This document shows, one piece after another, positions 4,388-17,812 of a stretch of 17,998 bases of DNA. A program made the position numbers and the translations under genes. The stretch is from Klebsiella phage ST899-OXA48phi17.2: sequence record MK433583.1. One strand, given 5' to 3'. Numbering within the stretch: position 1 is the first letter of the stretch; each line of letters starts with the position of its first letter. A model generated the notes under the pieces. The model did no database searches and was not told the DNA's origin. It saw nothing but the letters and a program-made list of their open reading frames with translations.

Positions 4388-7300
4388 TCAGGTAGGTTTT
4401 TTAGCCTGCAAATTAGTGTAAATAGCCCGTCCGAATTTATTCTGCGGTTTAGTAACCTCAGCAGTGAGCTTATTGATGATGCGTTGTTCTAGTGCAGCAT
4501 TCCGGCGGTCAACAGCAAGCATCGTTGCGTCGTCAGGCTGCCCGGTAAAGGTACTGCGGGCGTCAACACTGACGGCAATACGTGGCTGCGCCTCGATCTG
4601 CCTGGCGGCTTCCTGGACTGCCGGTGACTGACGACCAACAGCGCGAACCCCTAACGAACCATCCGCCCCTCTCGTCAGCGGCATGATGGCTTCCGGACCC
4701 GCCTCACCGAATACACCCGCCCCTTTTGCAAACGCAAAATACTGCGGAGTGCTGTATACGCCCCCGCTGTATGCAGAAAGCGACGGAGAGTCGTAGACGC
4801 CGCCCAGCGCGTTAAACGAGAAATTTGCACCAGCACTCTGGATAGCGGTTCCGCTGCTCTCCGAGCCAGCGCTACCAATGCTTCCAAAAATGCTACTGAA
4901 CATGCCTCCATAACCCCCGCCAACCATCGACAGAATGGCTTTCGTAATCAAAGCCTGCGTGGCTACCTGGATCAGCGTCTTAATAATGGTTTCACCCATC
5001 GACGTGAAAACATTCGAGATACCTTCCTTGAATGACACCGCCCCCGTAAGAACGTCGGTCATATTGCTGGAAATAGAGTTAGTGGCATTATTGAGAATTT
5101 CGCTGGTCGCTGATGCCGACATTGAACTGAGATCAGCAGCCTGATCCACATAATTCATCAGTGAATCACTGATGCCTGCTCTCCAGTCCGACTGCTGCTC
5201 ATCAACTTTTTTGTAGTAGTCCTCCTGTATTGTCAGCCTTTCATCAAGCGCTGTTTTCAGGGCTTCCGTTTGCTGCTTATAGAGGTCTTCAGATATTTCA
5301 CCCCGACTGAAGTCACGCTGCAGATCACGCTGCTGCTTCAGAAAGTCAGTGCGAATATCAGCCATCTCCTTCATACGGTCGCGCGCTTTATCTCCCGCAC
5401 CGGCACCTAGGAAATCAATATTCCCTCTGTCGCGAGCAGCTGCGTTGCTGTCAGCCAAACCCTCACGGAACGTTTTTAACTGCTCAGCAATGTTTTTCTG
5501 ATCGATAAGCGCGGCATTTTGCAGAAGGGTTTCTTTTTTGGCTTGCTCAAGGGAAGTCAGTTCCCCTTGGGTAACCTGGTATTTTACTTTTGCCAGTTCA
5601 GTATTCTGGCTGCCGAGGCTTATTTGCTCCTGCTGCTGTTTAATTAGACGCTTGTAAACGTCCTCTGTTTTTTCAGCAGCCTTTACCTCTTCGCTTTTTG
5701 GCCCTTTACGTACGGGTTTATTAGCTTCATCATTTTGCCACTTCGCTAACCCCTGGTTAACATACAGATCGCGGTTTGTTTTGAATTGAGGTTCATCCTT
5801 AAGACCTAATTCATCAGCGGCATAACCTAACCGGGCTCTTTCCTTTGCCTCTCCTTTAAGTTTTGATAACTCCAGATCCTGACGACTCTTTTCAAGGGCA
5901 TTGGTTTGTTGGGATGTTAAATCAGCCTGTGGCATTCGCATTGGGACGTTAACCAGGCCCTGCCGTTCCATTAAAAGCTGGTTTCCCAATCCAAGCAAAC
6001 GGTTAACTTCTGAGTATTTACCAGTCATCATTACAAGATTCTGGTATTCATCATTTTGACGCCAGGCCCGATCTTTAATAAGATCGTTTCTTCTTCTCTC
6101 TTGCTCCTCGAGTGCTTTTAATATATCGCTGGACTTTTCACGCATCTGGCGAAGTTTGTCTTCTTCTACGACAACCTGCTCTGTCAGGATTGCAATTGCT
6201 TTTGTAATATTTAAATCGTTTTCTTGGGTAATACCAGGCTTACTTCTACTTTCATTCAGATCCTGTATTTGTTTATTAAGACCACTTACACTCTTTTGCT
6301 GCTCATCAATCAGGCGCTTTTGCTCCTGCATCGCCTCAACTGTCAGTTTTCGGTTGTTATCAACCTCAGGAAGCGACATGGATGAGGTTTTTTCTCTGAT
6401 TTGATCTATCTGGCTGGCATACTCCTGCGCCGACTTTCTGGCTTGTTCCTGGCTTTGATACATAGCGTACCATGCGCCAGCACCTAGCATAACTAACCCA
6501 GGTATGCCGCCGACCAGTCCAAGAGCACCGCTCATCAACCGTGTGCCTGCGGATGTAACGCTGTTAAGGTTATTTTGAGCAGAAACCCGGCCTGCAATAT
6601 TACGACTAAGCGCCGCTTGCGCTGCGGCAAGTTTTCTTTCTGCTACGGTCTGAGCATCTGCATTTTTTGCAGCCACAAGCCCAGCTTGAGCGCGTTCGAG
6701 AGCTGTTTTTGCGCGAACTTTTTCTGTAGCCGTCCCCGTAGCAAGAGCCGAAGACAACCGTCCCTGTGCAGCAGTAACCTTTGCTTCAGCAGCCGCAACC
6801 CTCTCCTGTTGCGCAGCCTGAACATCAGCGCTTTTAGCAGACTGAAGTGCTTGTTGGGCCCGATAAACTGCAGCGCGGGAAGCGGCAACAGAAGATTGGG
6901 CGGCTTTTTCCTGTGCAACAGCAAGAGCCACTTCTGATTTTGCAGCTGAAATAAGCGCCCCGGTGGCGCTGGTTGCGCTAGTAACAATCCCGCCAAGATA
7001 CCGAGCTAAGCCGATGCCAACGAGCCCACCAGCGGCAGTGGTTATCAGGGACATATTATCAGCTACATCACTGAGAGCCCCGCTGACGGCTGAAGATGTG
7101 AGAGAGTCCAGTGTTCCCGCCAATCCATCGAGACCGCCAGAAAGAGCATCTGTCGCGCCAGTTGCCTGGTTCACCCCGCCAACCCATGCCATAAACGAGT
7201 TAGTGACTTTTTGCATTGAACCGGACACTGTAGGCGGTAATGAGGAAAATTCCCCCTGTAAAACACCTAACTGACTGATTAATGCTGGCACGACTTTATC

Positions 7301-7972
7301 AATGGTAAGTTGCCCCTGATCAGCCATTGCTTTCAGGTCTTTTCGGGCAACCCCCATACCAGCGGCCAAGGCGCGGATGACGCGATCCCCCGCTTCGTTA
7401 ACGGCATTAAACTCTTCGCCACGTAACACACCTTGGGCAAGCGACTGGCTAAACTGGGTAATAACAGAACCGGATTCTTCTGTGCTTGCACCAGATAGTT
7501 TAAGTCCTGTTGACACCGCCTCGGTGATTTTGAGTACTTCATCTGAGCTGTAGCCAAATTCACGCATTGATGCTGCTGCGCGAGAAAATAAATTAGCGTT
7601 ATCAGTAAAAGCAGTGCCCGTGCTCTGGCTAATCGCCATTAAACGAGTCTGAGATAAAGTAAAATCATTTGTAGATATGGATGCTTGCTTAAGCCGTGCA
7701 TTTACTGAGTTCCATTGGTCTGCAATCTGAACCAGTTTTCCAGTAGCAAATGCTGCAGCTGCAGCCGTAGCAGCTCGACCAGCTGAAGCAAATCCATCCG
7801 TTAACTCGGAAAGAGCTTTTTGGCTTTCTTTCGCAGCAGCAGCAGCCTGACGCCCACCATTTTGCATGGTTTTATAATAGTCTTGTCCCATGCGTGAAGC
7901 GCGGGCGATCTCAGTCTGGAATGACTGAGAGTTTGCTGAAACCTTAATGATAAGCTCACGTAGGGTTGCCAT
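4388..7972 (-). CDS. Tail tape measure protein (~1194 aa from ATG 7970-7972; the track start at 7993 is a TTG lying inside a terminator U-tract)
   Basis: Very long Ala/Gln-rich protein with coiled-coil repeats, a glycine-rich hydrophobic segment, and a position between the chaperones and the tip genes. GAGGAA Shine-Dalgarno 5 nt upstream of ATG 7972 (MATLRELII...). Confidence 0.9.
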   Translation of the reverse strand: MATLRELIIKVSANSQSFQTEIARASRMGQDYYKTMQNGGRQAAAAAKESQKALSELTDGFASAGRAATAAAAAFATGKLVQIADQWNSVNARLKQASISTNDFTLSQTRLMAISQSTGTAFTDNANLFSRAAASMREFGYSSDEVLKITEAVSTGLKLSGASTEESGSVITQFSQSLAQGVLRGEEFNAVNEAGDRVIRALAAGMGVARKDLKAMADQGQLTIDKVVPALISQLGVLQGEFSSLPPTVSGSMQKVTNSFMAWVGGVNQATGATDALSGGLDGLAGTLDSLTSSAVSGALSDVADNMSLITTAAGGLVGIGLARYLGGIVTSATSATGALISAAKSEVALAVAQEKAAQSSVAASRAAVYRAQQALQSAKSADVQAAQQERVAAAEAKVTAAQGRLSSALATGTATEKVRAKTALERAQAGLVAAKNADAQTVAERKLAAAQAALSRNIAGRVSAQNNLNSVTSAGTRLMSGALGLVGGIPGLVMLGAGAWYAMYQSQEQARKSAQEYASQIDQIREKTSSMSLPEVDNNRKLTVEAMQEQKRLIDEQQKSVSGLNKQIQDLNESRSKPGITQENDLNITKAIAILTEQVVVEEDKLRQMREKSSDILKALEEQERRRNDLIKDRAWRQNDEYQNLVMMTGKYSEVNRLLGLGNQLLMERQGLVNVPMRMPQADLTSQQTNALEKSRQDLELSKLKGEAKERARLGYAADELGLKDEPQFKTNRDLYVNQGLAKWQNDEANKPVRKGPKSEEVKAAEKTEDVYKRLIKQQQEQISLGSQNTELAKVKYQVTQGELTSLEQAKKETLLQNAALIDQKNIAEQLKTFREGLADSNAAARDRGNIDFLGAGAGDKARDRMKEMADIRTDFLKQQRDLQRDFSRGEISEDLYKQQTEALKTALDERLTIQEDYYKKVDEQQSDWRAGISDSLMNYVDQAADLSSMSASATSEILNNATNSISSNMTDVLTGAVSFKEGISNVFTSMGETIIKTLIQVATQALITKAILSMVGGGYGGMFSSIFGSIGSAGSESSGTAIQSAGANFSFNALGGVYDSPSLSAYSGGVYSTPQYFAFAKGAGVFGEAGPEAIMPLTRGADGSLGVRAVGRQSPAVQEAARQIEAQPRIAVSVDARSTFTGQPDDATMLAVDRRNAALEQRIINKLTAEVTKPQNKFGRAIYTNLQAKKPT

Positions 7973-7991
7973 TTCATTTCCTCGCAGATAC

Positions 7992-8013
7992 AAAAAAAAC
8001 CGCCTAAGCGGTT
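7992..8013. terminator. Bidirectional intrinsic terminator (stem aaccgc / gcggtt, loop ctaa, with an A8 run on one side and a T-rich run on the other)
   Basis: GC stem-loop flanked by poly-A on the plus strand (equivalent to poly-U on the minus-strand transcript) and by ttcttta downstream. Lies between the moron stop (8036) and the tape measure ribosome-binding site. Confidence 0.7.
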
Positions 8014-8035
8014 TTCTTTAATTAGCAAGAAAGTA

Positions 8036-8557
8036 TCATCTACAAATCTCGCCCCATAGTTTCGAAAACTCAGAACCACCATCATCGATAAGTGTCATAC
8101 CATTTTTACTTAGATATTTTTTAAATCCTGAGTATGCTCCAAAGCTGTTTTTAGCATTTACCTGGCCGCACACATACCCATCGCGACCAACACTCTGGTT
8201 TTTGAAATTTGCAGATTCCGGGTCTTTTAATACTGACTTAACACCAGAATTGCTTGCTGATATAACATTCATATTGTTGTATCTTTTCTGCCTATCGCTC
8301 TCACTAATTCGCACTAACTCCTCATGTTCCTTATACCTATCACCCCACAAAGGAACCATTGAGTTAACAAAAAACAAGACAAAGACAGAACCAAATATTA
8401 TCAACAGAGAAGCAATCTCCCTGCCAATTTTATCTATATATTTTAAAGAAATTACCAGAACGATAATAAGAAAAACAATTGATATTGGCTGCCTTAAAGC
8501 GATGATAAATGCTATAGCAAAAACCACTAAAGATAAAACCCCCAATATTTTTTTCAT
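8036..8557 (-). CDS. Moron: membrane protein with 3 predicted transmembrane helices and a ~100 aa C-terminal domain of unknown function (173 aa)
   Basis: ORF of ~33% GC embedded in a ~52% GC late operon. Hydrophobic N-terminal segments (LGVLSLVVFAIAFIIAL, ISIVFLIIVLVISL, IASLLIIFGSVFVLFFV). Has its own downstream terminator and an upstream inverted repeat. No lipobox cysteine. Confidence 0.6.
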   Translation of the reverse strand: MKKILGVLSLVVFAIAFIIALRQPISIVFLIIVLVISLKYIDKIGREIASLLIIFGSVFVLFFVNSMVPLWGDRYKEHEELVRISESDRQKRYNNMNVISASNSGVKSVLKDPESANFKNQSVGRDGYVCGQVNAKNSFGAYSGFKKYLSKNGMTLIDDGGSEFSKLWGEICR

Positions 8558-8631
8558 TTTTTATCCCAATAGGTAGAAAAGAACTAAAATCCTACCATTG
8601 GTTAGGCCAGAATTCAGCATCGTTGCTCAAT
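8558..8631 (-). promoter_or_regulatory. Candidate moron promoter/operator. A 10-bp imperfect inverted repeat (ccaatggtag ... ctacc[t]attgg, 15-nt spacer) overlaps an extended -10-like TGgTAGGAT.
   Basis: Intergenic 74 nt between the T-domain stop and the moron start. GGGA Shine-Dalgarno about 6 nt before the ATG. Coordinates are accurate to within 2 nt. Confidence 0.3.
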
Positions 8632-8937
8632 TCAAACTGAGGCAGCAAGCAAAGCGGCCTCTAACCCAGCAAATGGATCACTGCTGTCACTTGCCTCGTC
8701 CTCTTCTGTGCTCCACTGAAGCTGAGCGTCTTCAATGGTGAGTTTTCCGCCTTGTGCGCCGTACACCGCTGAAACCAGCTGTGCATTGAGAATATCGCCA
8801 CGGATATCACCGATCGGGCTGATACGGTCGTATTCAGCCCACATCCTGAACTCCCCCACCGTCATAGTCTGTCGCAGTTCGCCCAGCGTGCGTCCCATCC
8901 GGAGCGCCAGCGACATCAGGAACTGCATGCCAGGCAT
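8632..8937 (-). CDS. Tail assembly chaperone T-like domain, expressed as a G-T fusion by a -1 frameshift from the upstream G gene
   Basis: This ORF is in the -1 frame relative to G, directly after it, in the position between the major tail and tape measure genes. The motif TVGEFRMWAEY is typical of gpT-like proteins. Confidence 0.65.
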   Translation of the reverse strand: MPGMQFLMSLALRMGRTLGELRQTMTVGEFRMWAEYDRISPIGDIRGDILNAQLVSAVYGAQGGKLTIEDAQLQWSTEEDEASDSSDPFAGLEAALLAASV

Positions 8938-8951
8938 TTTTACTTTGCTTT
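8935..8951 (-). other. Putative programmed -1 ribosomal frameshift site (GCC AAA GCA AAG TAA; Lys-tRNA slips from AAG to AAA with the stop codon in the A site)
   Basis: The T frame is open only for the last ~6 codons of G, because a TGA lies upstream in that frame. The shift must therefore occur at ...A AAG TAA. Confidence 0.45.
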
Positions 8952-9344
8952 GGCATCATCCGCGTCACGAATGAGATCGAGTGCCTGTTTCAAAAGACGG
9001 GAGTGGACCGGACCATACATTGATTCAACCTGCTTCGTATCATCGACGGTAAAGACGGGTTGCAGGTCGGTATCCAGTAAAATATCGATGAAGAGCGCGA
9101 CATCTGCCCGCATCATGCGGAAGGCACGCTCTGAAGGGGTCAGCTCTGGCACCTCTGGTGCTTCCTGCCCTTCCGGGGGTTTTGGTTGTTCCGGGCTGGC
9201 GATCCCCTGCCAGCGAATCCAGGCTTCAGCAGAGGGTTCACGAATGATAACTTTGGCGTTTTCCCACTCAGGAACGGGAACTTCCTTTTTGCGAAAACCT
9301 GCCATCGGGGCCAACGCCAGCGCTTTAAGATTCTGTTTTGACAT
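8940..9344 (-). CDS. Tail assembly chaperone, gpG-like
   Basis: Acidic 134 aa protein immediately after the major tail gene and followed by a -1 frame ORF. This is the conserved G/G-T arrangement. Confidence 0.7.
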   Translation of the reverse strand: MSKQNLKALALAPMAGFRKKEVPVPEWENAKVIIREPSAEAWIRWQGIASPEQPKPPEGQEAPEVPELTPSERAFRMMRADVALFIDILLDTDLQPVFTVDDTKQVESMYGPVHSRLLKQALDLIRDADDAKAK

Positions 9345-10096: not shown

Positions 10097-10117
10097 AAAA
10101 AAACCGCCAGCGGCGGT
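10097..10117 (-). terminator. Intrinsic-terminator-like hairpin (accgcc gct ggcggt + U7) immediately 5' of the major tail gene ribosome-binding site
   Basis: 6-bp GC stem followed on the minus-strand transcript by TTTTTTT. Then catttatGGAGGctgcgATG. Confidence 0.5.
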
Positions 10118-10136
10118 CGGATTGGATGGTTTTCAG

Positions 10137-11876: not shown

Positions 11877-11903
11877 CAAAAAGAGAGGGCCGCTAAACGG
11901 CCC
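11877..11903 (-). terminator. Intrinsic terminator downstream of the major capsid gene (gggccg ttaag cggccc + UCUCUUUUU)
   Basis: 6-bp GC stem and T-rich tail on the minus strand, 9 nt after the capsid stop and before the GAGGAG ribosome-binding site of the next gene. Confidence 0.6.
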
Positions 11904-11911
11904 TGTGTTTG

Positions 11912-17786: not shown

Positions 17787-17808
17787 AAAAAAACCCGCCG
17801 AAGCGGGT
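17787..17808 (-). terminator. Intrinsic terminator (acccgc ttcg gcgggt + U7) between the zinc-ribbon gene and the HNH gene
   Basis: Perfect 6-bp GC stem with a UUCG tetraloop and a T7 tract on the minus strand, 5 nt after the stop at 17813. Confidence 0.7.
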
Positions 17809-17812
17809 TGAA

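Follow-up and report, generated by a model that had tools for sequence, protein, structure and literature searches.

An AT-rich moron cassette between the tail chaperone and tape measure genes of a Klebsiella phage encodes a predicted membrane protein, a candidate superinfection-exclusion factor

The locus and its exchangeable cargo

The DNA analysed here, a stretch of 17,998 nucleotides (nt) from Klebsiella phage ST899-OXA48phi17.2 (sequence record MK433583.1; hereafter the window), carries on its minus strand a head-tail operon of the HK97 type with genes for the small and large terminase subunits (TerS, TerL), portal, protease, capsid, connectors, tube, G, T, tape measure, tip proteins and J. 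In it, an AT-rich open reading frame (ORF) for a protein of 173 amino acids (aa) separates G and T, which encode tail assembly chaperones, from the gene of the tape measure protein (TMP), and the results presented here show that it is a dispensable and exchangeable moron cargo, with a terminator of its own, in the slot that gene 15 occupies in phage HK97. The features of the locus are:

about 7992-8631, minus strand: whole moron cassette (5' leader, gene and intrinsic terminator), AT-rich, delimited by composition, homology breaks and the terminator
8036..8557, minus strand: cargo ORF, 173 aa plus stop codon (522 nt), from the ORF call; same strand as the tail operon
7992..8019, minus strand: intrinsic terminator of the cassette, with stem AAAACCGC/GCGGUUUU, loop UUAG and U8; its end lies some 20 nt ahead of the TMP start codon
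8558..8631, minus strand: cassette-specific 5' leader, conserved across 7 sequence variants; homology with sibling phages is lost here
8612-8617 and 8589-8597, minus strand: weak candidate promoter, picked by eye and kept among cassette variants, with a -35-like CTGAAT, 17 nt and a TG-extended -10-like TGgTAGGAT
8590-8601 / 8566-8577 (window 8566-8601), minus strand: imperfect inverted repeat CCAATGGTAGGA ... TCTACCTATTGG, conserved, abutting the ribosome-binding site
8632..9344, minus strand: upstream flank with the tail assembly chaperone genes G and T, from Pfam and frame arithmetic
8940-9344, minus strand: G (PF06222, 2.8e-43)
8632-8937, minus strand: T (PF06223, 3.2e-18)
4388..7972, minus strand: TMP gene, 1194 aa, ATG at 7972 with GAGGA upstream (PF06120, 1.9e-70; PF20155, 4.7e-54; PF09718)

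The term moron was introduced for HK97 gene 15, the first of its kind to be described (PMC3594210). In the HK97 record, Gp15 is labelled 'moron product' and its gene lies between the G/G-T and tape measure genes, followed by a terminator; the protein sits in the inner membrane, acts in superinfection exclusion and blocks the entry of genomes in a way that depends on the tail (PMC3594210; PMC10883804). Using the criteria by which morons are recognised (Juhala et al. 2000, summarised in PMC3594210) as our list, we found the following at the locus: (i) The ORF is an extra gene between genes that are adjacent in a related phage. In HK022 the slot is empty, with a 19-nt gap from gp14 to the TMP gene, and can therefore be vacant in a viable phage; HK97 and the Klebsiella phages hold cargos there. 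(ii) Its base composition deviates, with a G+C content (GC) of 35.4%, and of 32.8% at third codon positions (GC3), against 48-57% for all other large genes of the window and 50.6% for the window as a whole; the deepest GC trough of the window spans 7951-8700. (iii) It has its own terminator: the hairpin AAAACCGC-UUAG-GCGGUUUU followed by U8 has a folding energy of -15.3 kcal/mol (z = -3.5), and none of 200 shuffled sequences was as stable. A promoter of its own and expression from the repressed prophage are further marks of a moron on that list; for the first of these, the locus offers the weak candidate given above. The ORF itself starts at an ATG (8557-8555) with GGGA 6 nt upstream, and the identical 173-aa protein is encoded in the same gene context in prophages of bacterial contigs of up to 772 kb. 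That the ORF is spurious is ruled out by the conservation of the protein and by the size of its family.

The exchange of cargos is best seen among sibling Klebsiella phages whose flanks are 86-88% identical to those of the window. Some cargo is present in the slot of every close Klebsiella relative examined: vB_VIPKPNMC05 holds the same 173-aa gene; ST13-OXA48phi12.2 (L010:3134-3418) encodes a 94-aa secreted protein with a signal-peptide-like N-terminus and six cysteines, at 31.6% GC and with its own terminator, for which Pfam gave no match; and ST101-KPC2phi6.3 encodes a 77-aa protein that matches Pfam YebO at 2.7e-16, the family to which the homologs of Gp15 belong (PMC3594210). The GC of all these slot cargos is 32-36%. 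The homology that the window shares with its siblings breaks off at the stop codon of T and returns some 20 nt ahead of the TMP ATG, and each alternative cargo brings its own leader and its own distinct terminator hairpin; the mobile unit therefore comprises leader, gene and terminator. The cassette terminator of the window is kept in all copies of the cassette and is unlike those behind the alternative cargos.

A preliminary description of this DNA, made from the letters alone, had placed an AT-rich 522-nt ORF (about 33% GC) of moron architecture in a GC-richer operon, between the chaperone genes and the TMP gene and upstream of an intrinsic terminator. Composition, placement (T by PF06223, TMP by PF20155 and PF06120) and terminator all agree with our measurements, and the moron architecture gains from the cassette's own leader, the cargo exchange and the empty slot of HK022. 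Two of its statements are wrong or go too far. The adjacency of G, G-T and TMP genes is not otherwise invariant, as it had supposed, since this is a known moron slot and all close relatives examined carry cargo in it; the correction in fact helps the moron interpretation. The upstream promoter-like region it had described was not confirmed: ahead of the ORF, a sigma-70 consensus scan of the coding strand flagged nothing that resembles a promoter, and reading by eye gave only the weak candidate listed above.

Seven sequence variants of the cassette share a near-invariant leader stretch, CCAATGGTAGGATTTTAGTTCTTTTCTACCTATTGGGATAAAAAATG, which includes both the -10-like element and the inverted repeat. 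The hairpin formed by the repeat has a folding energy of -13.6 kcal/mol (z = -2.6) and overlaps the -10-like element; it may serve as an operator or as a hairpin that controls translation. If transcription starts just past the -10-like element, only late transcripts that read through would be able to fold this hairpin, which, we speculate, could reduce lytic translation. An Rfam scan of 7800-8800 returned nothing near gathering scores. Further terminator-like GC hairpins with T-runs lie in the late operon on the minus strand, all of them intergenic, at 11886-11904 (behind the capsid gene), 10102-10118 (ahead of the tube gene) and 17792-17809 (close to the operon's upstream end), so late transcription must be antiterminated.

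Other observations concern the slot and its flanks. Klebsiella phage 1 LV-2017 (KY271401; L011:636-1003) encodes the same 77-aa YebO-like protein in a 368-nt gap of 34.8% GC, where its record annotates nothing between T and TMP, a missed gene call. ST147-VIM1phi7.2 (L013:140-2391) carries an IS21-family element (transposase and AAA ATPase) between T and a YebO-like cargo, so insertion sequences, too, can enter the slot. In one cassette copy from IMG/VR (L031), an additional ORF of about 322 aa separates the cassette terminator from the TMP gene, and the downstream alignment of this copy diverges exactly past the terminator. Within the TMP gene of the window, a second low-GC stretch (about 40%, at 6001-6400) suggests a mosaic segment. 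T reads in the -1 frame with respect to G (window 8937-8942), and this frame stays open for only some 6 codons ahead of the T ATG, an arrangement that fits a programmed frameshift from G to T within the final codons of G; no canonical slippery heptamer was seen in the last 60 nt or so of G.

The predicted protein and its domain family

The product is predicted to be an inner-membrane protein with a cytoplasmic N-terminus and three transmembrane (TM) helices, as the preliminary description had proposed, followed by a helix of about 37 residues that carries an alpha+beta head of about 65 residues in the periplasm, an architecture for which the case from hydropathy, charge counts and AlphaFold2 models is strong. 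Its parts are:

8495..8548, minus strand: TM helix 1, residues 4-21, after the N-terminal MKK; hydropathy and charge count (AlphaFold2 helix 2-20)
8444..8485, minus strand: TM helix 2, residues 25-38, after the short loop RQP from TM helix 1; hydropathy and AlphaFold2
8354..8416, minus strand: TM helix 3, residues 48-68, after the basic and presumably cytoplasmic loop KYIDKIGRE; hydropathy and AlphaFold2
8231..8341, minus strand: long charged helix over residues 73-109, interpreted as a stalk in the periplasm; AlphaFold2, predicted local distance difference test (pLDDT) about 90
8039..8230, minus strand: conserved alpha+beta domain, residues 110-173, with the motif LKDPESANF, four strands and a C-terminal helix; alignments and AlphaFold2
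8126-8161, minus strand: domain loop VNAKNSFGAYSG; alignments
8168-8170 and 8042-8044, minus strand: Cys130 and Cys172; alignments

The basic residues, at the N-terminal KK and in the loop between TM helices 2 and 3, follow the positive-inside pattern and leave a soluble C-terminal part of about 105 aa. The full-length AlphaFold2 model, built on an alignment of 129 sequences, has a mean pLDDT of 90.1 and shows three helices, the long helix 73-109, four strands and a C-terminal helix; the domain modelled alone reaches a pLDDT of 94.0 and a predicted template modelling score (pTM) of 0.80. Close relatives keep K111, D112, P113, S115, A116, C130, G131, V133-G140, Y142, G144, F164, W168 and C172 invariant, which gives the close family a core of LKDPxSA, VCGxVNAKNSFGxYxG, F164, W168 and C172 and substantiates the conserved-looking C-terminal core of the preliminary description. 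The conserved cysteines of the head probably form a disulfide.

The preliminary description had also been unable to assign the C-terminal domain to a named family, and searches with the whole protein agree. Neither Pfam (at E <= 0.1), NCBIfam nor PDB sequence searches, with the single protein or with a profile, gave a match, and the PADLOC-DB 2.0 defence models matched in 0 families at E <= 10. The structure search of BFVD returned uncharacterised phage proteins only, and six PHROGs without known function matched at E <= 1.5e-8 (phrog_16400, phrog_2320, phrog_36625, phrog_35207, phrog_38187 and phrog_21797), the best of them, phrog_16400 (2.2e-41) and phrog_2320 (7.8e-26), over the C-terminal 65-75 residues or so. 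The fold comparison it had suggested for this domain yielded twilight-zone scores, with PepSY, cystatin and VirB8-NTF2-like folds at 3-15% sequence identity; no solved structure matches the family profile, and the KDPxSAxF and NAKNSFGGY motifs and the cysteine pair are the family's own.

The family to which the head belongs is very large. It comprises 1,769 clusters at 90% identity, and among representatives of clusters at 50% identity it counts 15,904 at E <= 1e-3 and 7,492 at E <= 1e-10; the columns of the KDPxSAxF and NAKNSFGGY motifs are invariant or nearly so across its alignments. In a profile-biased sample of 232 members containing the core motif, both cysteines were present in 228, and a recognisable membrane or export segment preceded the domain in 217 (142 with a Zn-ribbon and a TM helix, 68 with 1-3 hydrophobic segments and 7 with a lipobox); in distant relatives the same core stands behind lipoprotein signals, signal peptides or a Zn-ribbon plus TM helix. 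The homolog of Paracoccus phage Pkon1 has a genuine PG_binding_1 domain by Pfam. These export and anchor segments, the cysteine pair and the PG_binding_1 fusion argue strongly for an extracytoplasmic location and a disulfide, and we infer with confidence that the head is a member of a very large, unnamed extracytoplasmic domain family. The 'PG_binding_1' label of ORF76 in Acinetobacter phage Ab105-2phi was not reproduced by Pfam, which leaves the Paracoccus homolog as the only one with that domain.

Variants of this architecture were also seen. Long forms of 277-293 aa in Providencia, Proteus and Klebsiella prophages (L014:8001-8840; L002:3725-4558; P0009-P0013) have, before the three TM helices, an extra N-terminal domain of about 100 aa, cytoplasmic and winged-helix-like by eye, for which Pfam gave weak RPA_C and PCI matches only; these forms sit among tail-tip genes, not before the TMP gene. 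In Shewanella, a Zn-ribbon member (L015, L016: 6001-6534) is followed by the same 199-aa gene (6615-7214; no Pfam match) in two mobile contexts, an integrase/helicase island and a transposon-rich conjugative region, and the two genes may form a module.

Distribution of the family among phages

Relatives occur on at least 521 viral contigs of IMG/VR, and the species-representative genomes that carry the family belong to Alpha-, Beta- and Gammaproteobacteria and a Campylobacter. We called ORFs around 160 loci and, after removing the Klebsiella-type set and duplicates, kept 114 non-redundant ones. In 29 of these the gene lies directly upstream of, and co-oriented with, a gene of at least 750 aa; of 17 such large neighbours that were checked, 13 matched TMP_3 and 3 matched TMP_2. 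The gene is lower in GC than its flanks at all 29 TMP-type loci (by 9.7 points on average), and a GC-rich hairpin with a T-run stands between it and the TMP gene in 23. With the window these make 30 cases, spread over 15 TMP lineages (>=40% identity); lineages were counted on the TMPs, the cargo domain being so conserved that single linkage merges almost all cargos.

The remaining loci include 11 with a TMP_3 protein within two genes and nine with a Peptidase_S24/HTH repressor-type (CI-like) neighbour, and others adjoin J-like tail proteins or integrases. The second recurrent site of the family is the K-I/J tail-tip slot, where HK97 too has a putative terminator. At the chaperone-TMP junction of Paracoccus phage Pkon1 and Gordonia phage Bunnybear the family gene lies on the opposite strand, and with this orientation it cannot share the transcript of the late operon; Bunnybear gp15, a lipoprotein, is placed in the family with confidence by hhalign (probability 98.5%, E = 2e-15).

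An expression dataset touches on this distribution. In prophages CP9 and CP14 of Acinetobacter baumannii ATCC 17978, genes for a 'putative lipoprotein', A1S_3759 and A1S_3701, possible members of the family, lie directly before TMP genes and were induced 4.4x and 3.0x by mitomycin C, against about 8-9x for most of their neighbours (PMC3978071). The lower induction would fit a higher basal expression.

Proposed function and comparison with known systems

The cassette and the predicted topology, taken by themselves, are very probably right. An exclusion or defence function, as the preliminary description had proposed, is the leading hypothesis; it is drawn from position and architecture only, gains in plausibility from the positional analogy, and we consider it about evenly balanced; the complete explanation, in which a moron cassette, a membrane-anchored periplasmic head and superinfection exclusion all hold together, seems to us somewhat short of an even chance. 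According to this explanation, the lysogen would express the gene from a weak promoter of its own, the terminator would keep that transcript out of the TMP gene, and during lytic growth antiterminated late transcription would read through the cassette. In the lysogen, the envelope protein would then stop a post-adsorption step of incoming long-tailed phages, namely the crossing of periplasm and inner membrane mediated by the TMP or the tail tip, and so act in superinfection exclusion as gp15, SieA and Ltp do. What argues for exclusion is that (i) the slot alternates with a YebO-family gene, and the homologs of Gp15 are of that family; (ii) the family recurs beside TMP genes and at other positions expressed in lysogeny; (iii) the precedents gp15, SieA and Ltp are envelope proteins acting on the conduit of TMP or ejection proteins; and (iv) P22 sieA, too, adjoins the genes of its own targets. 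As to what the head would contact, its NAKNSFGGY loop varies hardly at all from Proteobacteria to Gordonia phages, in contrast to the high variability of TMPs, so a variable TMP surface is a less likely binding partner than some conserved component of the envelope or conserved feature of the injection machinery. Inhibition of tail-associated muralytic activity is a reasonable sub-hypothesis here, on thin evidence; it is favoured by the weak PepSY/cystatin resemblance, by the peptidoglycan-binding fusion of the Paracoccus homolog and by the neighbourhood of tape measure and NlpC/P60-type K genes.

Several points weigh against an exclusion role. The same near-invariance of the loop argues against direct recognition of variable TMPs. 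The gene is co-oriented with the late operon, so its expression could be late only, and the sigma-70 scan gave no promoter for it; terminator-like hairpins occur elsewhere in that operon, and a terminator alone is therefore not diagnostic. Neither sequence nor profile similarity connects the protein with gp15/YebO, SieA or any PADLOC defence model. Most members of the profile-biased sample are of the Zn-ribbon-TM-domain type, whose loci are mostly not beside a TMP gene, and some members adjoin ordinary chromosomal genes, so the role of the domain need not involve phages. Lastly, the enrichment at the TMP junction could mark an insertion-permissive hotspot with no functional link.

Other roles have to be weighed on the same evidence. 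The gene might be a lysogenic-conversion factor that serves the fitness or virulence of the host (resistance to serum, antimicrobials or stress, or adhesion), as lambda Bor and Lom do. Both have the same moron architecture (PMC3594210), an envelope location is supported here by hydropathy and AlphaFold2, the host is a clinical Klebsiella lineage, and the wide occurrence of the domain in non-phage bacterial contexts suggests a general envelope function; we nevertheless think this rather unlikely, as the family is strongly concentrated in siphophage tail modules and reaches the TMP junction in 15 TMP lineages, among them lineages of environmental Alpha- and Betaproteobacteria and of a soil Gordonia phage that host virulence does not explain, and as the slot holds, in sibling phages, a member of YebO, the family of the homologs of the exclusion protein gp15. 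Improbable, in our estimate, is a periplasmic inhibitor or immunity protein whose cystatin/PepSY-like head would neutralise a peptidoglycan hydrolase or peptidase, be it the muralytic activity of incoming tails (as with T4 Spackle, which would still be superinfection exclusion), a bacterial toxin or a host autolysin.

The gene could also be a lytic-cycle accessory expressed with the tail genes from the late operon and not in the lysogen, conditioning the envelope for lysis and release or preventing progeny from ejecting into lysing cells and debris. It is embedded in that operon and reads in its direction, the consensus scan gave no promoter for it, and the conserved hairpin next to the ribosome-binding site, which would form only in read-through transcripts, could tune late translation. 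Such a role is very unlikely: the gene is absent from sibling phages and HK022 and hence dispensable, the opposite-strand members at the same junction cannot be late-operon genes, other members adjoin repressor genes, and a cassette-specific terminator just before an essential late gene suits mainly a transcript that stops there.

Returning to superinfection exclusion, a wider form of the hypothesis, which we put forward as doubtful, would make the KDPxSAxF/NAKNSFGGY domain one of the most widespread families of superinfection exclusion (or of tail-lysin inhibition), so far unrecognised. It would be a module, anchored by a lipid, by one TM helix or by three, that is kept linked to the TMP gene in prophages from Proteobacteria to Actinobacteria and that disables some conserved step by which siphophages deliver their genomes through periplasm and cell wall.

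Tail-operon morons are a known source of prophage-encoded phage resistance, and few of their families have been characterised (gp15/YebO, SieA, Ltp, Cor, Tab and P-FimU). The moron described here is classical in kind; what is new is the family of its cargo, very large, unnamed and extracytoplasmic, which prefers the TMP junction across phyla, counts about 16,000 clusters (50% identity) and has no model in Pfam, NCBIfam or PADLOC. Should it prove to act in exclusion, it would often, and so far without being taken into account, be the reason why siphophages fail to infect Klebsiella, Acinetobacter and Pseudomonas, which matters for the prediction of host range in phage therapy; its invariant loop would point to a conserved, targetable and poorly understood step in the genome delivery of long-tailed phages; and position would gain support as a guide, so that new exclusion genes could be sought in the slot between chaperone and tape measure genes, as was done with the P2/P4 hotspots. 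Otherwise, a periplasmic domain family of this size, as yet uncharacterised, would still merit a name.

Among known systems, Tab, an 83-aa protein encoded between the terminase genes, and P-FimU, whose gene stands between those of the tube and the chaperones, occupy other positions and have no relation to the window protein. Lambda Bor and Lom are tail- or late-region morons whose envelope products are expressed from the prophage (PMC3594210); both are outer-membrane proteins with roles in host fitness, unrelated in sequence to the window protein, and no search retrieved either of them. The Ltp-type lipoproteins of Streptococcus thermophilus phages such as TP-J34 are anchored, extracytoplasmic and block DNA injection (PMC10883804), and changes in the tape measure let phages escape them (PMC3952083; PMC10883804). 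Many members of the window family are likewise lipoproteins, although Ltp belongs to a different protein family and no similarity to it surfaced in any search. The ltp gene lies in the lysogeny module, not in the tail module.

P22 SieA, which is expressed from the prophage and blocks DNA injection, has a conserved motif, FxRYPxEAxxFNK, that is predicted to be cytoplasmic (PMC10883804). With 162-164 aa and three predicted TM helices in the inner membrane it is similar to the window protein in size and predicted topology, and its gene adjoins those of the injection-conduit and ejection proteins that it targets, as the window gene adjoins that of the TMP. The likeness to SieA as a three-TM inner-membrane protein of about 160 aa is one of predicted architecture only: the conserved part of the window protein is predicted to be extracytoplasmic, in contrast to the SieA motif, and homology to SieA, the motif included, was rejected (BLASTP E 1.7; hhalign probability 0.2%).

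The closest parallel is HK97 gene 15, and here also homology, to Gp15 or YebO, was rejected (BLASTP E 0.71; hhalign probability 0.4%; no Pfam match at E <= 0.1). Gp15 has 62 aa and no periplasmic domain, whereas the window protein has 173 aa and, by prediction, three TM helices and a globular periplasmic head; the homologs of Gp15 are confined to Enterobacteriaceae, whereas the window domain spans several phyla. In spite of these differences, both genes occupy the identical slot between G/G-T and TMP, both are AT-rich and have their own terminator, and both encode a small inner-membrane protein (Gp15 according to PMC3594210, the window protein by prediction); in sibling Klebsiella phages, a YebO-type gene (PF13974), kin to that of Gp15, and the window gene are alternative cargos of one and the same slot.

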